From Candidatus Saccharimonadota bacterium (GTDB taxonomy: Bacteria; Pseudomonadota; Alphaproteobacteria; CAJXXZ01; 1604HC): 32,000 nucleotides of DNA. The position numbers and the translations under genes were made by a program. Positions 9,101 to 30,504 of this stretch are shown in pieces. The stretch spans positions 330,001 through 362,000 of the forward strand of contig NZ_CP043316.1 of the NCBI RefSeq assembly GCF_008189405.1. Direction: 5' to 3'. A model generated the notes under the pieces. It saw nothing but the letters and a program-made list of their open reading frames with translations, made no database searches and was not told the origin of the DNA. Every line of letters begins with the position of its first letter. Position 1 is the first letter of the stretch.

Positions 9101-10765
9101 ATGGACCAAATTAAGAAATCTTTAAAATATCATTCAAATTTTCCTAAAGGGAAATGGGGAATGCACGCCACTAAACCTTTAACTTTGCAAGATATGGCAT
9201 TAGCTTATTCTCCTGGAGTTGCTGATCCTTGCCTAGAAATTGAGCGTGATTTAGAAACTGCTAAAGAATATACAGCAAAACAAAATTTAGTTGCTGTTAT
9301 TAGCAATGGAACAGCGGTATTAGGATTGGGAAATATTGGAGCACTTGCATCAAAACCTGTGATGGAAGGGAAATGCATTCTGATGAATAAGATGTCAGGG
9401 GTTTTTGGTGTTGACATAGAAGTTGATGAGAAAGATTCAGATAAAATCATTGAGATTATTAGAAAAATTTCTCCTACATTTGGTGCAATTAACTTAGAAG
9501 ATATTAAAGCTCCTGAATGCTTTATAATTGAAGAAGCATTACAAGATTTAGATATTCCTGTATTTCATGATGATCAACATGGGACAGCAATTGTTGCTAC
9601 AGCTGGAATTGAAAATGCATTAAAGCTATCAGGAAAGTCATGGGGCTCTGTTAAGGTTGTGGCAAATGGTGCTGGTGCTGCTGGTATTGCATGCTTAGAT
9701 TCTATGGTTAATATGGGTTTAAATCCTAACAATATTATGCTTTTTGATTCAAAAGGATTGATTAATGATACACGTTCTGACCTAAACAAATATAAGCAGA
9801 AATATGCTATAAATAAAAAATCATGCACATTAGAAGAAGCATTAAATGGTGCTGATATATTTCTGGGAATGTCCGCAGCAAAAGCATTAAAACCAGAGTG
9901 GATAGTAAATATGGCAAAAGATCCTGTAATTTTTGGACTAGCAAACCCAGAACCAGAAATAATGCCAGAATTAGCAAAAGAAGTTAGACCAGATTGCATA
10001 ATGGCTACAGGAAGATCTGACTATCCAAACCAGGTCAACAATATTTTATGCTTCCCATATATTTTTAGAGGAGCATTGGACTCTCAAGCAAAAAGCATTA
10101 ATAATGAGATGAAAAAAGCATGTATCAAAGCAATTGCTGAAATTGCAAGAAATGATAAAAGCTTTGGTACTAGTCATATAATTCCTAATTCATTAGATGA
10201 AAGATTAGGCTTGATTGTATCAAACGCTGTCGCTCAAGCAGCAATTGAAAGTGGTGCTGGTAAATCAGTGCCTAATTTATATGGAAGATATATAGAGAAA
10301 ATGCTTAATATAAATTCAGAGCGATATTTTAATATATATAATGGATCTAATCCTATAAATATTGATAACATTCAAACGGATATTCAATCATTTTTAAATG
10401 CATGGGAAACTCCAATCAAATCAGATTCAAATTCACAATATGTTATCAAACCTATGGAAAAATCTTGTAATGGTGAAAAATTGGTTTGGATTTTTGGCCT
10501 AGAATCATCTAATCCTTGGATAGCATATAGCACTAGTGAAAATTCTATAATTAAGGATATTAGATCAATATTAAGCTTGTCTAACATGCCACATATTCCA
10601 GTAGTAGATATAAAACAATGTAGAGATTTAGAAAAAAGAAATGATTTTTGTGGTAGAATTTCATTAAATGAGGGGTTAAAAATGGAATTCAAACCAGGAT
10701 TAAGAAATATAGCCTACCTTACATTGCTTTTAAGTGGTATTGCAAATGTCAAAATTACCTATTGA
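9101..10765 (+). CDS. maeB: NAD(P)-dependent malic enzyme, MaeB-type N-terminal module with a short unrecognisable C-terminal tail
   Basis: 554 aa. Residues 1 to about 410 carry MaeB-type motifs (YSPGVA, VISNGTAVLGLGNIG, FHDDQHGTAIV, GAGAAG, NPEPEI, NQVNNILCFPYIFRGALD). The SD AAGGAG lies at 9085..9090. The last 145 aa or so show no PTA-like motifs. Confidence 0.88.
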   Translation: MDQIKKSLKYHSNFPKGKWGMHATKPLTLQDMALAYSPGVADPCLEIERDLETAKEYTAKQNLVAVISNGTAVLGLGNIGALASKPVMEGKCILMNKMSGVFGVDIEVDEKDSDKIIEIIRKISPTFGAINLEDIKAPECFIIEEALQDLDIPVFHDDQHGTAIVATAGIENALKLSGKSWGSVKVVANGAGAAGIACLDSMVNMGLNPNNIMLFDSKGLINDTRSDLNKYKQKYAINKKSCTLEEALNGADIFLGMSAAKALKPEWIVNMAKDPVIFGLANPEPEIMPELAKEVRPDCIMATGRSDYPNQVNNILCFPYIFRGALDSQAKSINNEMKKACIKAIAEIARNDKSFGTSHIIPNSLDERLGLIVSNAVAQAAIESGAGKSVPNLYGRYIEKMLNINSERYFNIYNGSNPINIDNIQTDIQSFLNAWETPIKSDSNSQYVIKPMEKSCNGEKLVWIFGLESSNPWIAYSTSENSIIKDIRSILSLSNMPHIPVVDIKQCRDLEKRNDFCGRISLNEGLKMEFKPGLRNIAYLTLLLSGIANVKITY

Positions 10766-12110
10766 GATTCATAGATATGAAACTGCACAACGCCGAATAG
10801 CGTTTATTATATCTAGCTTAAATAGCAATTCAGTAATTACTACTAGAAATATTTTCAAGCATATACATGCTTCTGAAGCTGCTATAGTATTGCATTTTTT
10901 ATCTCCATCTCAGAGAGAAAAGTTAATCAATATTTTAGGTTCAGATTTTGATCCTTATATATTAGCATTTTTAGATGATGAGGTTCGTGAAGAAATTGTA
11001 GATAGTTGGGCTAATGATCAGTTAGGTAAGGCATTAAGTTCATTAAATGAACATGACGCTTTAGAGATTCTATCTGAATTGCATCCAGAACAAAGAAAAG
11101 CAATTTTAAAGTCAATTAGTCCTGAAATCAGAATTTTTCTTGAAGAAGGATTAAGCTATCCAGAAAAAAGTGCTGGACGTTTAATGTGTTATCAAGTTGT
11201 CGCACTGCCTCAGTATTGGACTATGGAAAAGGCAAAATCATTTTTAGCCAAAGCAAAGCACCTTCCAGAAGAGTTTTATTCTATTTTTATTGTGGATAAT
11301 TTTAATAAGCCAGTAGGATTTATAAAATTACAGGATGTTTACAGATATGCTAAATCAACTGTTTTATCTAGCTGTATGGAGGATGTTTTATTTGAAGCAT
11401 CTACAGATACAGATCAAGAAGAATTGGCTTTATTATTCAAGCAATATTCTGCAATTAATGCCCCTATTGTAAATAAGAATGGACGAATCGTTGGTGTGAT
11501 CAATGCAAACTTAATTGTAAATATTATCTTTAAAGAAAGTGCAGAAGATCTTCTGCATATGGCTGGTGTGGAAGACACTGGATTCCATGCAAATATCATA
11601 GAAACTGCAAGAGCAAGATTTAAGTGGCTATTTGTATCTAGTTGTACAGCAATGTTATCATCTAGTGTTATTGGTATGTTCCAAGGCGTAATATCTACTC
11701 ATCATCAACTTAGTATTGTTTTGCCAATGACTGCTGCGATGGGTGGTAATTCTGGTATGCAGGTTGTTGCTGTGATTATCAGAGCATTATCCAACCGACA
11801 GATTAGCACGATTAATGTATGGCGTGTTTTACGAAAAGAAGTATTAGTAGGGTTACATAATGGGTTTATATTTGCAATTCTATTTGGATTGATCTCATAT
11901 TTTTTCATATCCAAACAAATTGCGTTCGTACTAAGTATAGCGATCATGCTTAACATAGTATGGTCCAGTTTAATAGGAATGGTTTTGCCAATGATGTTAG
12001 ATAAAATGGGTTTAGATCCGGCATTAAGCACAGCATCATTTTTAACTGCTATGACTGACATGATGGGATATACTGCATTACTCCTTACAGCTTCATATTT
12101 CTTACTATGA
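10746..12110 (+). CDS. mgtE: magnesium transporter MgtE
   Basis: ORF 10734..12110. It has the MgtE N-domain, a CBS pair region and a C-terminal 5-TM domain with AAMGGNSGMQ and TDMMGY motifs. I prefer the ATG at 10746 (MSKLP...). Either start overlaps the maeB stop at 10763..10765. Confidence 0.9.
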   Translation: MSKLPIEIHRYETAQRRIAFIISSLNSNSVITTRNIFKHIHASEAAIVLHFLSPSQREKLINILGSDFDPYILAFLDDEVREEIVDSWANDQLGKALSSLNEHDALEILSELHPEQRKAILKSISPEIRIFLEEGLSYPEKSAGRLMCYQVVALPQYWTMEKAKSFLAKAKHLPEEFYSIFIVDNFNKPVGFIKLQDVYRYAKSTVLSSCMEDVLFEASTDTDQEELALLFKQYSAINAPIVNKNGRIVGVINANLIVNIIFKESAEDLLHMAGVEDTGFHANIIETARARFKWLFVSSCTAMLSSSVIGMFQGVISTHHQLSIVLPMTAAMGGNSGMQVVAVIIRALSNRQISTINVWRVLRKEVLVGLHNGFIFAILFGLISYFFISKQIAFVLSIAIMLNIVWSSLIGMVLPMMLDKMGLDPALSTASFLTAMTDMMGYTALLLTASYFLL

Positions 12111-12553
12111 TTTATATATTAAATTACATGCAACCTCTTCCAAAAGAGCTAAATATGATTAACATAAACTATATTATTAAATATTTTAATGGTAATGGGC
12201 TTGATGCTTATAGATTGTCCTATAATTAAGGTTCATTATTTTCCTTATATAGCAGCAAAAAAAATCTATTAAATAATACAATCAAGAGAAGAAATAATAA
12301 TACACTACGATTAGCATAACAGGTGAAATTGAAAAATGAATATAAAATATATGATTAGTAGCTTCTTCAGATTGCATATTCACATAATTTTGATTAACAA
12401 TTTAGTGCAAAGTTCAGCAATTATTAATTTGAAAGCACCGATCATTTGAATATTATAAAATACACACAACTTCATCATTACATTATTTTATTCGACAATA
12501 TCGCTTCCGTTTGTCAACAATTATCCTAAGATTTGAATATGTTTATGTTATAA

Positions 12554-12873
12554 ATGCCAGAAGCTTTTTATCTATATTCTATTAAGTTTCTTGAGAAACA
12601 TCCTCCTCCTCTTCAGTATCCACTTCATTCATAGCTACAGCTTTAAACACATTTTATTATATAAAATATGCCAGAAGCTTTTATCTATATTCTATTCAGT
12701 TTTTTGGGAAACATCCTCCTCCTCTTCAGTATCCACTTCATTCATAGCTACAGCTTTAAACACATTTTATTATATAAAATATGCCAGAAGCTTTTATCTA
12801 TATTCTATTAAGTTTCTTGAGAAACATCCTCCTCCTCTTCAGTATCCACTTCATTCATAGCTACAGCTTTAAA
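12554..12873. repeat. tandem repeat, 2 full units and one 93-nt partial unit, period 114/113 bp; every unit contains the last 66 nt of gyrA
   Basis: Units begin with ATGCCAGAAGC at 12554, 12668 and 12781. Unit 3 overlaps the real gyrA 3' end (12808..12873). Unit 1 differs from it by one extra T. Unit 2 differs by 3 substitutions around the ghost stop codon. Confidence 0.95.
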
Positions 12874-15354
12874 TAACTTATCATCATCTAATCTAGCTAA
12901 GCGTACCCCTTGTGTTTTTCTACCAGCTACACGTATATCATCAGAATTACATCTAATGATCTGGCCATTTTCAGTCATCATTAAAATTTCACTATCATTA
13001 TCAATTCTATATGCACCCATCACTTTTCCTGTTTTTTTAGTGACATCTAATGCAGAAACACCTTTTGCTCCACGTTTGGATCTTCTATAGTTACTTTCAG
13101 TGCTACGTTTACCATATCCATTTTCACTAATTGTCAAAATCATAGAATTGTCTTTTTCATTAATAAGTGTTGCTGATACAATTGTATTATCTTCTATACC
13201 ACTTAAATTCATACCAATCACACCATGTGAAGATCTACTATTAAATACTCTTACATCTTTAATAGAAAACCTTACAACTTTACCTTGTGATGAAGTTAAT
13301 AGAATATCATCTTCTTCACTACAAATCATAGCAGAAATCAATTTTTCATCACTTTCCAACTTCATGGCAATTTTTCCATTTGACCTAATGCCTTGGAAAT
13401 CTTTAATTGTGTTTCTTCGTACATATCCTTTAGAAGTAATAAAAATAATTGTTTGTTTATCATCAATTTGTAACGGCAATGCAAGTGAGCTCATAATACG
13501 CTCATTAGTATCAATAGGAAATAGGTTCACAAGCGCCCTTCCTTTACTCTGACCAGCATTTACTACAGGTAGTTTATAAACTTTCATTGAATATGAATAT
13601 CCAAAACTACTAAAGAAAATAACTTCTTGATGAGTGTTTGCTACAAACATATGTTCTACAGGATCATCAGAATCCATACCAACTTTTCCTTTTCCTCCAC
13701 GTTTTTGCAGCTTATATGATGATAATGGCATGCTTTTTACATACCCTTTAGTACTCAATGTAATAACCATTTCTTCAGATTTAATATAAGATTCATCAGT
13801 TGTTTCTTCCAAATTAATTTCTAATTCAGTTCTTCTTGGAGTACCAAACAATCTATTTATTTCTTCTAAATCCTCTTTGATAATTTTAAATCTTTCACTC
13901 TCATTATTTAGTATATGCAAATATTTTGTAATATTTTCACCAAGCAGTTGCAATTGATTCCACAGTTTATCTCTTTCTAATCCTGTCAATCTGCTTAATC
14001 TTAAATTCAATATTGCTTTGGCTTGCTCTTCTGAAAAGAAATATTTATCTACAGGTTCACAATTCTCACTAATACAATTTAAATAACCCTTAATATCATC
14101 CCAAGACCATTCCATTTTTTGTAAACGCAACTGTGCTTCTTGAGAATCTTGAGATGTTTTTATACAATAAACAACTTCATCCAACTTCTTCACAGCTAAA
14201 GATAATCCCCATATTACATGTGCTTTAACTCTATCTTGATTTAAAAAGAATTTTGTTTTTCTAATTAAGACCTGCTCTCTATAATCAAGAAAAATGTTAA
14301 GAGAGCTCTTCAAGCTTATTTGCTTTGGCTTATGATTATGCAAAGCAAGCATGTTTACATGCATTGCAATTTGCATTTGAGTAAATTTATATACCCTATT
14401 CATAATTAATTCTGGTTCTGCATCTTTTTTTAATTCCAAAACAACACGCATACCATCTTTATTAGATTCATCACGAAATGTGTGAATAGGTCCAAGAATC
14501 TCTGTTTGCATTAAATCTGCAATCTTATCCATCAAATTCTCTTTATTTACCTGGTATGGAATTGAAGTAATAACCAATGCATTTCTATTGTTTACTTGCT
14601 CATGATGCATTTTACCTCTTACAGTAAAGCTTCCTCTGCCTTTTGTATAAACATCAATCAAACCACTATTTTTGAAAATTATTCCACCTAATGGAAAGTC
14701 TGGAGCTGGCAAGTATTGCATTAAATCTATTGAGTTTAACGTTCTATCATCAATCAATGCACATGTAGCATTAATCACTTCAGACAAATTATGTGTTGGG
14801 ATAAATGTAGCCATACCAACAGCAATTCCACTAGCACCATTTACAAGTAAATTTGGGAATCGTGCAGGCAATACTTCAGGAATTTCTAATGTATTATCAT
14901 AGTTAGGATGCATATCAACTGTGTTTTTATCATAATCTTCCAAAAGATATTTTGCTATTTTTGATAAACGGGCCTCAGTATAACGCATAGAAGCAGGCTT
15001 ATCTCCATCAATAGAACCAAAGTTACCTTGCCCATCAATTAATGGTGAATAAATAGAAAAATCTTGAGCCATTCTAGTCATTGCATCATAAATTGCAGCT
15101 TCACCATGAGGGTGATATTTACCAAGAACATCACCAACGATACGAGCAGATTTTCTATGGGGATTTTCTGGCACACAATTTGTTTCAATCATTGAATATA
15201 AGATTCGCCTTTGAACTGGCTTTAATCCATCATACGCATCTGGAACTGCCCTACTAGCAATCACACTCATAGCATAATCTAAATAAGAAGATTGTAATTC
15301 ATCTTCAAAAACTTTTTGTGTGGGTTTGTCTATATTATCAACGTTCATATACAT
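12808..15354 (-). CDS. gyrA: DNA gyrase subunit A
   Basis: 848 aa. It has AMSVIASRAVPDAYDGLKPVQRRILY and the active-site Tyr context ASMRYTEARL. The GyrA box QKRGGKG in the C-terminal beta-pinwheel distinguishes it from ParC. The tail is acidic (DTEEEEDVSQET). Confidence 0.97.
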   Translation of the reverse strand: MYMNVDNIDKPTQKVFEDELQSSYLDYAMSVIASRAVPDAYDGLKPVQRRILYSMIETNCVPENPHRKSARIVGDVLGKYHPHGEAAIYDAMTRMAQDFSIYSPLIDGQGNFGSIDGDKPASMRYTEARLSKIAKYLLEDYDKNTVDMHPNYDNTLEIPEVLPARFPNLLVNGASGIAVGMATFIPTHNLSEVINATCALIDDRTLNSIDLMQYLPAPDFPLGGIIFKNSGLIDVYTKGRGSFTVRGKMHHEQVNNRNALVITSIPYQVNKENLMDKIADLMQTEILGPIHTFRDESNKDGMRVVLELKKDAEPELIMNRVYKFTQMQIAMHVNMLALHNHKPKQISLKSSLNIFLDYREQVLIRKTKFFLNQDRVKAHVIWGLSLAVKKLDEVVYCIKTSQDSQEAQLRLQKMEWSWDDIKGYLNCISENCEPVDKYFFSEEQAKAILNLRLSRLTGLERDKLWNQLQLLGENITKYLHILNNESERFKIIKEDLEEINRLFGTPRRTELEINLEETTDESYIKSEEMVITLSTKGYVKSMPLSSYKLQKRGGKGKVGMDSDDPVEHMFVANTHQEVIFFSSFGYSYSMKVYKLPVVNAGQSKGRALVNLFPIDTNERIMSSLALPLQIDDKQTIIFITSKGYVRRNTIKDFQGIRSNGKIAMKLESDEKLISAMICSEEDDILLTSSQGKVVRFSIKDVRVFNSRSSHGVIGMNLSGIEDNTIVSATLINEKDNSMILTISENGYGKRSTESNYRRSKRGAKGVSALDVTKKTGKVMGAYRIDNDSEILMMTENGQIIRCNSDDIRVAGRKTQGVRLARLDDDKLFKAVAMNEVDTEEEEDVSQET

Positions 15355-16501: not shown

Positions 16502-16975
16502 TTAAAATGGAATATCAATATCAGATTCTTGTTTATCAAATGGCATATTATTGTTTGATTCAGAAGGCTCTGAAGATTGAGCATTAAATGAAGAACCATA
16601 TTCAGAATTACCGTCATCATATTGCTCAGAACTATCATTTCTTGATCCAAACATTTTCAAATCTACCATTTCTACTTCAACTGTAGTTCTTTTTTGTCCC
16701 ATATCGTCAACCCAAGATGTTGGTCTTAGTCGCCCTCTAATATATACAAGACTACCTTTTTTAAGATATTTAGATGCAATATCAACTAATTGTGGGTTAA
16801 AAACCGCAATTCTATGCCAATCAGTTCTAGAAAATTTCTTTCCTGATTCCTTGTTCATCCACTCTTCAGATGTTGCAACAGAAAATTTTGCTATCTTGCT
16901 ACTCTTACCTTCTTTGATTTCAGGATCATTTCCTAAGTTTCCAATGATCATAACCATATTTACAGACTTTACCAT
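16502..16975 (-). CDS. ssb: single-stranded DNA-binding protein
   Basis: 157 aa. It has an OB-fold N-terminus (NMVMIIGNLGNDPE..., TDWHRIAVF), a low-complexity acidic/Ser linker and the canonical C-terminal tip DIDIPF. Confidence 0.95.
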   Translation of the reverse strand: MVKSVNMVMIIGNLGNDPEIKEGKSSKIAKFSVATSEEWMNKESGKKFSRTDWHRIAVFNPQLVDIASKYLKKGSLVYIRGRLRPTSWVDDMGQKRTTVEVEMVDLKMFGSRNDSSEQYDDGNSEYGSSFNAQSSEPSESNNNMPFDKQESDIDIPF

Positions 16976-17242: not shown

Positions 17243-18493
17243 TCATATAATTGAAGAAAAGATTCTATTAGTTTTATTAATATGATTAATTCCAATCACA
17301 AGCGCATCTACACGATCAGGGGATTTACTAAAACCGGGAAAGGATTTCATTTGTTTTTCTAGCTCTGTAAAAGTACCAATATGAAAAACTCTTCTATGAT
17401 CATATAGGCATGCTATCGGTTGTGCTCGCATAATCTTGTTATGTACAGATCTAATGCCTTGAAATCTCACCATTCTATTCTGCATTTTAATCAGCTGTTC
17501 TATCATGTCTCCACCCTGATTAATCTCTGCAATCACATTATTGGTTTTATATTTTTGGCATAATTCTGCACAAACTTTCGGCCACTCTGACATAGACCAT
17601 TTCCCACTTTTATCTTCTAGTACATAAAACTCATCGTTTTTCTTACCTACCACAATAATGCCAGTTTCATCACTATTTTCATTATTTGTAACAGCAGGAT
17701 CTATGGAAATTATAATATTGGATAATTGAGATATATCTGATGTGGACATTTCTTTCCTTAGAATATTATTATCTGACCACATTGTGATTTTATCTAATAA
17801 TTCACCACTAATTTCTTGCTTACCAAAATTTGTTCCCTCATATTCATTTTTAATATAACTAAGATATTCTTTAGATAAATTTAGCTTGTTTTCCATTGTA
17901 TTACCACTAGTATAATGCACATCACTCCTTTTAATGATTTTATGTAATAAAGGTATTGGCTTAGGTGTAGTAGTGACAATAATCTTTGGAATCCCTAATC
18001 GCATTGTCATCATTAATTGATCCCATGCTTCATCTAAATTATTAAATTTTGCCAATTCATCTACCCAAGCTAGATCAAATTGTGGCCCCCTCAAGCTTTC
18101 ATAAGAATCAGCACTATGTATTTGGGCAATAGCACCATTTTTCCACTTTAATATATTTTGTGAGGCAAAGAATTTTGGCTTTTCTTTATTCGAATACACA
18201 CTTAATATTCCGCTTTGACCATCAACCATGATTTTTCTCACTTCTTCTTTGGTTTTTCCTAATAAACAAATGTTTTTATATCCCATCTGAACAAATTGTT
18301 TGATTGATTCTGATCCTGTACGTGTTTTACCAAAACCTCTTCCAGCTAATAGTAACCAAATTCTCCAGTCCCATTGTGGAATTTTCTGATTATCACGTGC
18401 TTGCATTCTCCAATCATACTTTCTTTCTTCTTGGTTAATTAACTTTATCCCTAAACTGTATATCTCTTCTAATAATTTTATATTCGCATGCAT
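17243..18493 (-). CDS. phage/GTA-type terminase large subunit (RcGTA g2-like), orphan
   Basis: ORF 17243..18568. I prefer the internal start MHANIKLL (ATG at complement 18491..18493). It has the Walker A-like LLAGRGFGKTRTG preceded by the W-rich WDWRIW segment, Walker B LAWVDELAKF, and a C-terminal nuclease-like region (ISIDPA..., SPDRVDALV). These are typical of alphaproteobacterial GTA TerL. Confidence 0.82.
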   Translation of the reverse strand: MHANIKLLEEIYSLGIKLINQEERKYDWRMQARDNQKIPQWDWRIWLLLAGRGFGKTRTGSESIKQFVQMGYKNICLLGKTKEEVRKIMVDGQSGILSVYSNKEKPKFFASQNILKWKNGAIAQIHSADSYESLRGPQFDLAWVDELAKFNNLDEAWDQLMMTMRLGIPKIIVTTTPKPIPLLHKIIKRSDVHYTSGNTMENKLNLSKEYLSYIKNEYEGTNFGKQEISGELLDKITMWSDNNILRKEMSTSDISQLSNIIISIDPAVTNNENSDETGIIVVGKKNDEFYVLEDKSGKWSMSEWPKVCAELCQKYKTNNVIAEINQGGDMIEQLIKMQNRMVRFQGIRSVHNKIMRAQPIACLYDHRRVFHIGTFTELEKQMKSFPGFSKSPDRVDALVIGINHINKTNRIFSSII

Positions 18494-18605
18494 AACTCTA
18501 TTGTAGAAAATATGCTTACCATAATTCAAACCTTTTATAAAAAATTGAAACAATCCTAAAACACACAATACTTATATTTGCTTAAACTCATGTTAATATA
18601 TAGTT

Positions 18606-20207: not shown

Positions 20208-20780
20208 CTAACCATTATATAAAGATTGACTAGACGCATATGCTTTTTGTAATGCGTCTATTCCAGAATATACACTATAAGCCAAACCTTTTATTTTAAT
20301 TAAATTATCTAAACTCACCTCATAATTTACTTCATTAAATGAGTTAGGTGTCTTATTATAGAAAGCATTAAAAGCAGTATATAGTGAGTTTAATAGATTA
20401 TATATATCCATAAGTTTTTTTCTATTTTCTGGAGTAGGCAAATATTTACCAGGCAAATCTTTTGCTGCACTATACCCACGTTGTGCTGTACTATATCCAT
20501 ATTGTGCTGCACTATGTGCTGCATTATATCCTTGAGAAGGCAAATTACGCCCTGCATTCAAAGCTCCTTGCGCCAAATGCTGAGTAGATTCTATACCACT
20601 TTGAAGCATACTACTTGCGCTTGCAGCTAATCTATCCACAACAGTTCTATCTGCATTCTGCTGCTTTCTTGCGTTAGTATTCTGTCCTTTTGCTAACTGA
20701 GCTCTTGATGGACCTGGATTAGACTCTACACTTGCACATGATCCTAAAATACATAATATTGCAATATAATTCTTTTTCAT
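20208..20780 (-). CDS. predicted lipoprotein, paralog A of a three-gene family
   Basis: 190 aa. The signal peptide with lipobox is MKKNYIAILCILGS-C15. The mature part is A/Q/S/G/N-rich with GY(N/S)xA repeats (QGYNAAHSAAQYGYSTAQRGYSAA). The C-terminal VSLDNLIKIKG motif is shared with paralog B. An SD-like GGGAGAAAAATCTA precedes the ATG. Confidence 0.7.
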   Translation of the reverse strand: MKKNYIAILCILGSCASVESNPGPSRAQLAKGQNTNARKQQNADRTVVDRLAASASSMLQSGIESTQHLAQGALNAGRNLPSQGYNAAHSAAQYGYSTAQRGYSAAKDLPGKYLPTPENRKKLMDIYNLLNSLYTAFNAFYNKTPNSFNEVNYEVSLDNLIKIKGLAYSVYSGIDALQKAYASSQSLYNG

Positions 20781-20842
20781 TAGATTTTTCTCCCTATATT
20801 TAAATTATACTTAAGCTATATTAATTTTTCATAGATTTTTAC
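20732..20842 (-). repeat. conserved 5' cassette of lipoprotein paralog A (first 49 nt of the CDS plus 62 nt upstream)
   Basis: It aligns without gaps to 21558..21668, with about 9 mismatches in 111 nt by hand count. The offset is 826 bp. Confidence 0.85.
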
Positions 20843-21045
20843 ATCAATCATATAGTAGATATGTATCATTGTACTTGTTTTTTATTTGATTTTTCACTTA
20901 ATATTATTATCTTCTAATTGTTTTTTCAGAATATTTATTTGTTATTGAGTTATGCAAATTGAACTATATATTGATGTATTTTATAAACTAGAGTATCTCT
21001 TGATACATCATAAAAATCATACTATTTTTAAATGATCATAGCTCA

Positions 21046-21606
21046 TTATGCATTTGTTGCATGATTATTCATTTTATACATAGTTATTAATTCAGTAGCT
21101 GCACCATGCACTTTTTGAGATGAATCTTTAATTTTTTGAACATTGTCTAAACTAACCCCATTATCATAAATATCGCGAGCAGCACTTGTACCAGGACGAA
21201 TAGATTCTACTATCTTACATATCTCTTCAGCTATTCTTAACATTTTGTCAAATCTTTCCTTTGCATTTCGATCATGCAAGTATATACGTGCTTTTGCAAC
21301 TTGCGATGCAGCTGATACATATGCTTGTTCACCTGCTTTGCGTAATGCCTCTTGCCCAGCATTTATTGTATTTTTAGTACTATCTGCAATTTCTTGTGCC
21401 CTTACACTTGCATTATGCATAGAAGAAGTCACAAATGGACCTGTATTATTGATTGCAGTATTTATACGTGGGCCTACATTACCTCTAGCAGTAAATACTT
21501 GTTTACGCGCAGTATTCCATAATGCTTGCGCTCTAGATGGATTAACACATTTCACATTTGCACATGATCCTAAAATACACAATACTGCGATATAATTCTT
21601 TTTCAT
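21046..21606 (-). CDS. predicted lipoprotein, paralog B
   Basis: 186 aa. The signal peptide MKKNYIAVLCILGS-C15 and the upstream region are nearly identical to those of paralog A. The mature part is diverged but keeps PSRAQ, INAGQ and VSLDNVQKIKD. Confidence 0.7.
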   Translation of the reverse strand: MKKNYIAVLCILGSCANVKCVNPSRAQALWNTARKQVFTARGNVGPRINTAINNTGPFVTSSMHNASVRAQEIADSTKNTINAGQEALRKAGEQAYVSAASQVAKARIYLHDRNAKERFDKMLRIAEEICKIVESIRPGTSAARDIYDNGVSLDNVQKIKDSSQKVHGAATELITMYKMNNHATNA

Positions 21607-21668
21607 TAGATTTTTCTCCCTATATTTAAATTATACTTAAATCGTATTAATTTTTCATGGATTTTTAT
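21558..21668 (-). repeat. conserved 5' cassette of lipoprotein paralog B
   Basis: This is the partner of 20732..20842. The 47-nt core AATTCTTTTTCATTAGATTTTTCTCCCTATATTTAAATTATACTTAA is identical in both copies. Confidence 0.85.
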
Positions 21669-21871
21669 ATTGACAATACATAAATATATTGCATTATGAT
21701 TGCAAAGTATACTATATTCTTATTATGCTTTATTTGAATTATTACTATTATTTTGTTTGCTTGTTTCGAATTATTAAAGATAATTGATTGAATATATAAA
21801 ATTAAAAACTATATTATGCAGTTGTTAAAAATATATTGATCATTATTAAATTGATTTTACTCAAAACACTA

Positions 21872-22645
21872 TTAGCGTGAGTATGCTTCATGACCAGCAT
21901 TGTACAATGTTTGTCCAGCTGCTTTTGCATCATTTAACTTACTATGTGCATTATGACCAGCTTCTTGAAGTCTATTGAAGTTTTGTGCATTCAAGTAACC
22001 TGTTCCTTGGTTTTTAATTGTATTAAACTCTTGTTTAATGGCACCCTTATGAGTGTTTGCATAGTTGTATCCATCTTGCAATGTTTTACCTGCATTAATA
22101 ATTTTATTTCTGTTATCTGGGTTAGATACGTATGAAACACCCCTTCTACCTAAATCATACCCTTTATGAGCAACACCACTTACTTTTCCAGCAAATTGAC
22201 TTAATCTACCTTGAGATGAAGAACCGTTGGAACCATAAACTGTGTTACCAGCATTGTACAATGTTTGTCCAGCATGCTTAGTTCTATTGAACTCTTCTTG
22301 TGCTTGTTTACCAGCATTTGATAATCTATTCATATTTTCTGCGTTAAAATAGTTCATACCTTCGCTTTTTGCTTTATGGTATTCATTAATTGCAGCATCT
22401 TTATTATCTTTTACATAGTGATATCCACTTTTAATTTGATTTCCTGCATTTTTGATATTTGCTACGTTTGATGGGTCTTTTATGTAATTAAAACCTCTTT
22501 GTCCAACTTCAATACCTTTTTTACCTAAGTTAATTCCTTTATTAACAGCACTTGATGCAGTCTTTTTTACTTTAGAAAATAGACCACACTCTATCTTTGT
22601 ACATGATGCTAACACACATAATATTGCAAAATAATTTTTGTTCAT
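21872..22645 (-). CDS. predicted lipoprotein, paralog C, with an internal two-fold duplication
   Basis: 257 aa. The signal peptide is MNKNYFAILCVLAS-C15, a textbook L-A-S-C lipobox. It shares NAG....GY(N/H)Y-type motifs with paralogs A and B. The two halves (G44-Y137 and G162-Y255) align. Confidence 0.7.
   Translation of the reverse strand: MNKNYFAILCVLASCTKIECGLFSKVKKTASSAVNKGINLGKKGIEVGQRGFNYIKDPSNVANIKNAGNQIKSGYHYVKDNKDAAINEYHKAKSEGMNYFNAENMNRLSNAGKQAQEEFNRTKHAGQTLYNAGNTVYGSNGSSSQGRLSQFAGKVSGVAHKGYDLGRRGVSYVSNPDNRNKIINAGKTLQDGYNYANTHKGAIKQEFNTIKNQGTGYLNAQNFNRLQEAGHNAHSKLNDAKAAGQTLYNAGHEAYSR
21881..22516 (-). repeat. intragenic duplication, two units of about 282 nt offset by 354 nt (118 codons)
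   Basis: The exact 26-nt CCAGCATTGTACAATGTTTGTCCAGC occurs at 21894 and 22248. At protein level, GIEVGQRGFNYIKDPSNVANIKNAG...AGQTLYNAGNTVY aligns with GYDLGRRGVSYVSNPDNRNKIINAG...AGQTLYNAGHEAY. Confidence 0.85.
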
Positions 22646-29511: not shown

Positions 29512-29733
29512 CACACCTTTAAGCTAAGTTATATATTTATGTTAAATTATATATATTGAGATATAAGAAAATTAAAATACTATCATATTGAAAAATTAAA
29601 AACAGCATTGCATCATACATAAAATTTCATTAACCTAACTAAAGCTTTGAAAAAGTATGAATTAATAATAATTAATAATCTAAAGGTAAAAATGTTATAT
29701 AAAATTAAAAAGCATACTAAAAATTAGGACATA

Positions 29734-29769
29734 ATGCCTTCATATTAAAAAATGTCTTCATATTAAAAA
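29734..29769. repeat. 18-bp tandem repeat, 2 units
   Basis: ATGCCTTCATATTAAAAA is followed by ATGTCTTCATATTAAAAA, with one mismatch. It lies in the long fabH/tRNA-Thr spacer. Confidence 0.7.
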
Positions 29770-30035
29770 ATCAAAAATGCATAATAACTCCATACAAAAC
29801 TTCATTAAACCAGCTCAAATTTTAGAAAGCACAAATAAGTAGTATATTAGTACGTAAAATATACTAAAGTTTAAATATGAAAACACATGAAAGGTTTATA
29901 TACAAAACCTATTAATAGAAATACAACGTACACTTTTATCTATGCCATTGGAGAGATATGTACAATACACACATTATCTACGAAATGTATGATTGTAAAC
30001 TTTGCTTATCAATTCTTAAATTAATAAGCAAGTTC

Positions 30036-30165
30036 TACAAGCTCATGCTATTCGCTTGCTTAATCTATATAGTAAATTCCTTATGCCATTGGAGAGATTT
30101 TACAAGCTCATGCTATTCGCTTGCTTAATCTATATAGTAAATTCCTTATGCCATTGGAGAGATTT
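30036..30165. repeat. 65-bp tandem repeat, 2 exact units; the second unit contains the 3'-terminal 17 nt of tRNA-Thr
   Basis: 30036..30100 equals 30101..30165 (TACAAGCTCATGCTATTCGCTTGCTTAATCTATATAGTAAATTCCTTATGCCATTGGAGAGATTT). A third, isolated copy of TATGCCATTGGAGAGAT lies at 29941..29957. Confidence 0.93.
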
Positions 30166-30220
30166 GAACTCTCGGCCTCTCCCTTACCAAGGGAACGCTC
30201 TACCCCTGAGCTACAACGGC
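30149..30220 (-). tRNA. tRNA-Thr, anticodon GGU
   Basis: Hand-folded on the minus strand: GCCGTTG-TA-GCTC-AGGGGTA-GAGC-G-TTCCC-TTGGTAA-GGGAG-AGGCC-GAGAG-TTCAAAT-CTCTC-CAATGGC-A. It is 72 nt and CCA is not encoded. It is a GC-rich island. Confidence 0.9.
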
Positions 30221-30504
30221 ATAAATAAATTGATCCCATAAAAATACAATAAAAACAAGATACATATATATAAAACAACACATAATTAACATGCTTTTTA
30301 TGTTTTGAGCTATACATTACTCCAATTTATCAACATTTATAAAATAACATAACAATACTTAATAAAGATATGGCATTTCTATTTATTTGCCAAATTAAGA
30401 CTTTTTTTCATCTAAATTTACATAAAATTATATATAAATTTTAGTTTTTTTTTACTTTTTTGCCTAAAAATGTTTTTATTAACTTATGGATAGGAGAAAG
30501 TTCT

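Follow-up and report, generated by a model that had tools for sequence, protein, structure and literature searches.

Downstream of gyrA in the 32,000-nt stretch of DNA analysed here (the window), the end of the gene, its stop codon and a short piece of 3' flank are repeated head to tail. The resulting array, on the chromosome of Candidatus Cytomitobacter primus, very probably goes back to a recent tandem duplication that is lineage-specific and most likely neutral. Tandem Repeats Finder reported the array at 12554..12873 with a period of 113, 2.8 copies, 96% matches and a score of 610. It has the features of a tandem duplication of a gene 3' end, namely a constant period with high identity, a stop codon and flank within the unit, and an intact, collinear gene.

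Anatomy of the gyrA array and its spacer

The live gene was recognized from an open reading frame on the minus strand that scored 1009.5 bits against NF004043 (cutoff 902) and 992 bits against TIGR01063. Its stop codon, which reads TTA on the plus strand, occupies 12808..12810, and the final 21 codons (FKAVAMNEVDTEEEEDVSQET) extend to 12873. The features of the locus, with the neighbouring gene, are as follows:

12808..15354, minus strand: gyrA, the live gene, 848 aa (NCBIfam equivalogs NF004043/TIGR01063, above cutoff)
12781..12873, minus strand: repeat unit 3, 93 nt, comprising 27 nt of 3' flank, the stop codon at 12808..12810 and codons 828-848
12668..12780, minus strand: repeat unit 2, 113 nt, a ghost copy
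12554..12667, minus strand: repeat unit 1, 114 nt, the distal ghost copy
12111..12553, no strand: non-repeated part of the spacer, 443 nt between the convergent mgtE and gyrA
10734..12110, plus strand: mgtE, a magnesium transporter gene (TIGR00400, 246.6 bits), convergent with gyrA

When the units were aligned, the array on the plus strand read left flank-X-j-X-j-X-gyrA body, in which block X (93 nt) carries 27 nt of flank in addition to the stop codon and 63 coding nucleotides, and segment j (CACATTTTATTATATAAAAT) is 20 nt long; a full unit combines the same coding part and stop with 47 nt of flank. Unit 3 joins the gyrA body at 12873/12874, which places the proximal duplication junction inside the gene, between codons 827 and 828. 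The first-pass annotation had described a 113/114-bp tandem repeat with units starting at 12554, 12668 and 12781, and these starts and its base-level statements agree with the sequence and the alignment: the last 21 gyrA codons and the stop are included in every unit, two ghost C-termini follow a live gene that is itself intact, and the junction does lie within coding sequence. The duplication is present as described, but the array does not consist of three clean 113-nt units, for its X-j-X-j-X order amounts to 2.83 units, with j present only twice and absent from the outer (left) side of unit 1. Because of this missing outer j, a simple duplication model needs either an extra 20-nt deletion or a junction filler. 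Segment j resembled neither the adjacent gyrA body nor the left flank beyond their AT-rich background, and its closest other match in the window (1679..1698, with 3 mismatches) was 11 kb off.

The units are nearly identical to one another, the total divergence among them being 3 substitutions and 1 indel. Across the common 93 nt, unit 1 is the same as unit 3 save for one additional T in a T-run, and unit 2 and unit 3 disagree at three positions only (12697, 12703 and 12707); both the single extra T and the clustered substitutions had been noticed in the first reading, and both were seen in the alignment. On the coding strand the changes in unit 2 are TAA to GAA at the ghost stop, after which TAG comes next, GAA to AAA, and TCT to TCC. 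For three randomly placed substitutions, the probability of falling within a 10-nt span of 113 nt is P = 0.02, and a search within the window found no ectopic template from which the three could have been copied. The same substitutions disrupt a 6-bp quasi-palindrome, GTTTCT-CA-AGAAAC, which both of the other units preserve.

To examine a fourth, decayed copy that had also been suggested at 12468..12510, we aligned the doubled unit to 12111..12553 with the Smith-Waterman method. The best local score was 23, which is at chance level: the mean for shuffled sequence was 21.8, and scores of at least 23 were reached by 172 of 500 shuffles and by 33 of 69 real control segments. We therefore rejected this copy.

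Since the family profile stops at residue 832 of the 848 residues of GyrA, the coding sequence that was duplicated amounts essentially to the non-conserved acidic tail of the protein. Searches of the repeat units themselves gave neither an Rfam family nor a terminator-like site, promoters were not in excess and the fold z was about 0, so nothing in these searches suggests a function for them. An 89-codon open reading frame on the plus strand crosses the array antisense to gyrA; the gene caller used on OX638200.1, the C. primus assembly described below, assigned no gene there, and the frame is a by-product of the repeat.

At 697 nt (12111..12807), the mgtE-gyrA spacer is the longest in the window, where the median spacer is 110 nt, and the two ghost units supply 227 nt of it. 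The two longest spacers of the window, 12111..12807 and 29512..30147 (697 and 636 nt), are the two that carry arrays, and with the extra copies subtracted both stay unusually long (470 and 571 nt). The 443-nt non-repeated part was equally free of Rfam families, terminator-like sites and any excess of promoters, and comparison of the spacer with the gyrA loci of four relatives by blastn and tblastn returned nothing significant and no detectable gene remnant. With a replication terminus or dif site in the convergent spacer in mind, the left flank was read by eye against the dif consensus; it offered a rough match to the XerD-arm half only. GC skew changes sign at ~12 kb and ~24 kb, matching the flips in gene orientation at the convergent mgtE/gyrA pair and at a divergent pair at ~24.06 kb; since local skew tracks the coding strand, skew in the window is unusable for placing a replication origin or terminus.

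Source genome and relatives

By protein search, the window GyrA was 100% identical to DNA gyrase subunit A of Candidatus Cytomitobacter primus, the next matches being those of C. indipagum (82%) and Ca. Nesciobacter abundans (66%). Over ~34 kb compared, nearly all of it within the window, the DNA was base-for-base identical to OX638200.1 (GCA_951805245.1; 622,378 bp), and the window corresponds to the reverse complement of OX638200.1 376869..408868. This PacBio HiFi/metaMDBG chromosome was the sole assembly used for comparison with the window. C. primus, whose chromosome measures 622 kb, belongs to the Holosporaceae and lives as an endosymbiont in the diplonemid Diplonema japonicum; its genome has been described as gene-dense and stable, with few pseudogenes (bioRxiv 10.1101/719211). 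The same paper reports that RecA, RecFOR and MutSL are present in these endosymbionts, that RecBCD is absent and that PolI is without several domains, and the word 'tandem' appears nowhere in it. The first-pass annotation had invoked variable-copy tandem repeats, of a kind that takes in gene ends and inflates spacers, as a published hallmark of Ehrlichia ruminantium genomes; the GyrA match and the ~34 kb of identity correct the organism to a diplonemid endosymbiont rather than the heartwater agent, and the hallmark can serve as an analogy only, because the genome is not that of E. ruminantium.

A peptide-anchored scan in which each bacterial species was represented by one genome recovered two relatives only, with GyrA 81-83% identical, both of them 619-622-kb chromosomes labelled 'MAG: Rickettsiales bacterium'. 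A metagenome scan for the unit's coding sequence found 0 matches. We compared the region 3' of gyrA in four relatives (C. indipagum, two Cytomitobacter-like MAGs and N. abundans, with GyrA 66-84% identical) and found no repeat there in any of them; the genes downstream of gyrA differ in all four. The GyrA proteins of these relatives have acidic tails that differ in sequence and length. In a C-terminal alignment, the C. primus protein was collinear with three relatives across the duplication junction (...DDDKL/FKAVAMNE, with the slash at the junction, vs DNDKLMKAVPMND and DNDKLVKVVAMNE). Since the four relatives carry no repeat after gyrA, the duplication is lineage-specific and recent, and the near-identity of the units, which differ by just 3 substitutions and 1 indel, also argues for a recent event, as the first reading had proposed. 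The duplication is confined to the C. primus lineage, and the sequence of the live gene has stayed ancestral.

Several other features of the window are recorded here. At 20208..22645 on the minus strand, three adjacent hypothetical genes (190, 186 and 257 aa) without Pfam matches have 5' ends and 59-117 nt of upstream DNA in common at 83-91% identity, and they look like a small tandem paralogous family. A 746-aa open reading frame at 4678..6918 on the plus strand, again with no Pfam match, contains degenerate internal repeats, for example 6216..6256 with 6471..6511 and 5695..5729 with 6151..6185. A lone large terminase (Terminase_6N/6C) is encoded at 17243..18568 on the minus strand, near ssb at 16502..16975; it is in line with the gene-transfer-agent genes that have been reported from these symbionts (PMC9254644), and the ssb-terminase-ftsW neighbourhood is also found in N. 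abundans. The two-piece (permuted) alphaproteobacterial tmRNA at 8368..8725 on the minus strand (RF01849, 170.9 bits, tag peptide ANNNAFAPANGNSLQAVAVGA) is ordinary for the class.

Junction hairpins, the tRNA-Thr array and the origin of the repeats

The duplicated flank ends in a predicted hairpin, and a second array in the window, at a tRNA-Thr gene, has the same architecture as the one at gyrA. This recurrence had been pointed out in the first reading and was borne out by Tandem Repeats Finder, which found a 65-nt unit present 2.0 times across the gene end and its flank. The features concerned are:

12761..12783, minus strand: hairpin copy 1, 23 nt, with its 3' foot at the unit junction
12648..12670, minus strand: hairpin copy 2, the same hairpin at the junction of unit 2 and unit 1
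30148..30221, minus strand: tRNA-Thr (GGU), the intact live gene (ARAGORN; Rfam RF00005, 69.4 bits)
30036..30165, minus strand: tRNA-Thr array, 65 nt x 2.0 at 100% identity

The gyrA hairpin, CAUAUUUUAU-AUA-AUAAAAUGUG, has a 10-bp stem, a 3-nt loop and a dG of -4.8 kcal/mol. In the direction of the gene it is composed of the last 3 nt of X plus j, beginning 24 nt past the stop codon, and the next unit starts right after its final base. In the tRNA-Thr array each 65-nt unit consists of the last ~18 nt of the tRNA gene plus 47 nt of 3' flank, and the hairpin GCAAGC-(11 nt)-GCUUGU (6-bp stem, dG -6.2 kcal/mol) lies at flank positions ~24-46, with the junction 1 nt after its end. Among 23-mers on both strands of the window, 1.6% are as stable as the gyrA hairpin and 0.5% as stable as the tRNA-Thr hairpin. 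Both arrays thus have a duplicated block made of a gene terminus, a spacer of ~24 nt and a 23-nt hairpin, with the distal junction 0-1 nt from the 3' foot; the missing outermost j of the gyrA array also starts near the other foot of the hairpin. Because this coincidence was noticed post hoc, in two cases and with weak stems that are AU-rich or short, we treat the geometry common to both arrays as suggestive. In N. abundans we read by eye a small palindrome within the first ~50 nt after the gyrA stop, which would fit j being ancestral flank rather than junction filler.

Two other interpretations of the junction sequences were set aside. A consensus scan of 11900..13100 found 0 terminator-like sites, and the stem of the junction hairpin is almost all A-U, which does not agree with an intrinsic terminator. 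A motif that seemed common to the gyrA and tRNA-Thr flanks (ATATAGAT...) resolved into an 8-mer that is widespread in the window and a longer pattern confined to the gyrA units.

The spacer holding the tRNA-Thr array is 636 nt long, the second-longest in the window. We considered whether this array could be the duplicated att site of an integrase and rejected it: there is no integrase, the neighbouring open reading frames being fabH and a response regulator, and the copies are adjacent, the flank is duplicated too and nothing is enclosed between them. We also searched OX638200.1 beyond the window, for ~9 kb on one side and ~7.5 kb on the other. At L006 17537..17635 of OX638200.1, ~4 kb past the right end of the window, there is a perfect array of a 9-nt unit x 11 (AACTAAAAC) that starts within the stop codon (TAA) of a gene encoding a 188-aa cold-shock-domain protein; antisense to the array, a 46-aa open reading frame had been placed by the gene caller. 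In all, ~52 kb of C. primus contained three near-perfect arrays, each abutting a gene 3' end, and ~48 kb of relatives contained no array of comparable quality outside coding repeats, numbers that are too small for a test.

We infer that the gyrA array could have arisen in two steps. The duplicated segment begins at gyrA codon 828, takes in the stop codon and ends 47 nt downstream, at the hairpin's 3' foot. In a first, illegitimate event this segment may have been copied head to tail through a template switch or slippage during replication; our inspection of the junction found no useful microhomology there. A second event, either slippage misalignment of the 113-nt copies or a RecA/RecFOR-dependent unequal sister exchange, would then have raised the number of copies to three. 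The ghost copies would from that time have been dead DNA that enlarged the spacer by 227 nt, and later changes may have added the clustered triple substitution in unit 2, the slip of one T in unit 1 and the loss, or original absence, of the last 20 nt on the outer side. The same route may have produced the tRNA-Thr array. GyrA is unchanged and the event was presumably tolerated because the copy that is joined to the gene body keeps the full C-terminus and stop codon. That such arrays are seen at gene ends may similarly be explained by selection, which would remove duplications lying wholly inside genes and let those at gene ends and in spacers survive. Under a purely neutral model the clustering of the unit 2 substitutions over the ghost stop (P about 0.02) has to be a coincidence.

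This clustering, at the end of the tail and over the stop codon, is one point in favour of a different reading, in which the array is a contingency locus where recombination between units switches the acidic tail of GyrA (from ...SQET-stop to ...SQKTE-stop) or the length of the 3' UTR and so tunes gyrase activity or expression. After a contraction unit 2 would indeed encode an altered tail, with E846K and one additional residue; RecA and RecFOR, which could carry out the recombination, are reported present; and GyrA tails vary between related species. In E. coli the acidic tail of GyrA modulates supercoiling. Swapping of the tail through recombination between units, which the first reading had raised, is possible in principle. 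Against a locus that has been kept for such switching, there is one variant unit only and the change in it is small, the tRNA-Thr array has the same architecture with no coding tail to swap, the array is absent in the four relatives, and the ghost units have neither a start signal nor an unusual structure, so that we regard this reading as very unlikely. Still less credible is an error of assembly or polishing in a genome whose true sequence has one unit. A single assembly was inspected and the extra T of unit 1 falls in a homopolymer, as an error might; yet the window matches a PacBio HiFi/metaMDBG assembly whose reads span 320 nt many times over, and three substitutions are peculiar to unit 2 and an indel to unit 1, which expansion of a single unit would not create. 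An artefact is very improbable because the HiFi assembly is identical and the middle unit has variants of its own.

Two broader readings take the gyrA array as one instance of a wider process. A system of expansion and contraction like that of E. ruminantium, inflating spacers throughout the genome and varying between isolates and passages, would be in keeping with two long-period arrays and the 9-nt x 11 array in ~52 kb, all at gene 3' ends, with none of comparable quality in ~48 kb of relatives; E. ruminantium itself shows expansion and contraction at non-coding tandem repeats. The source organism is C. primus, however, and not E. ruminantium, its 622-kb genome is gene-dense and 'stable' with few pseudogenes and a median spacer of 110 nt, and three loci are too few for a genome-wide process; we consider such a system unlikely. 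We find it doubtful, though a little easier to entertain, that duplications bounded by a hairpin foot and capturing gene 3' ends are a recurrent mutational signature of this endosymbiont lineage. The favoured unit of duplication would in that case be a gene terminus together with a ~24-nt spacer and a 23-nt hairpin. The cause would then be a degraded replication and repair toolkit, with PolI lacking domains and no RecBCD, and the signature, if true, would show spacer growth even in a shrinking, 'stable' genome of 0.6 Mb.

The neutral tandem duplication that we favour is a real but ordinary kind of mutation, small and most likely neutral on its own. In practice it provides two or three candidate markers that could be sized by PCR in C. 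primus populations or culture passages, namely the gyrA array (113 nt x 3), which the first-pass annotation had put forward as a candidate VNTR marker, the tRNA-Thr array (65 nt x 2) and the 9-nt x 11 array a short way beyond the window. For annotation it is a warning, in that the ghost C-termini and the 89-codon antisense frame across the array are not genes. A recent gain of DNA in a genome published as gene-dense and stable is of modest conceptual value, and the geometry common to the arrays, with the junction at a hairpin foot ~47 nt past the gene end, hints at where replication errors may start.

Comparison with known systems

The tRNA-Thr array recalls the attL/attR repeats left by integrases in that the last ~18 nt of the tRNA gene occur twice in direct orientation. 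Unlike attL/attR, the copies are 47 nt apart, the whole 65-nt unit is 100% identical, and there is neither an integrase nor an inserted element.

Variable-copy tandem repeats are known from E. ruminantium (Collins et al. 2005 PNAS; Frutos et al. 2006 J Bacteriol; both as cited in PMC7343930 and PMC10710844), a genome with a coding ratio of ~64%. That they typically take in gene ends is the statement of the first-pass annotation. The gyrA array resembles them as a set of ~100-nt head-to-tail repeats in a spacer of an AT-rich, obligate intracellular alphaproteobacterium, with enlarged intergenic DNA. E. ruminantium belongs to the Anaplasmataceae, whereas the host genome here is of the Holosporaceae, in another order, and in contrast to the ~64% coding E. 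ruminantium genome, C. primus is gene-dense, with a median spacer of 110 nt in the window. The likeness is one of form only.

Another counterpart may be found in the tandem duplications of E. coli that are mediated by misalignment. These reportedly arise through slipped-strand or template-switch events, some of them stimulated by hairpins, and defects of PolI in flap processing are said to raise the rate of duplication. The C. primus array differs in being non-integer and in having no clear microhomology at the junction, and a mechanism of this kind would be attributed to it on the strength of its form. The resemblance extends to a short segment copied head to tail, to the gain of more copies once a repeat exists, to a gyrA junction that lies beside a hairpin, and to a host whose PolI is reported to be without several domains, a truncation that may, like the hairpin, have played a part.
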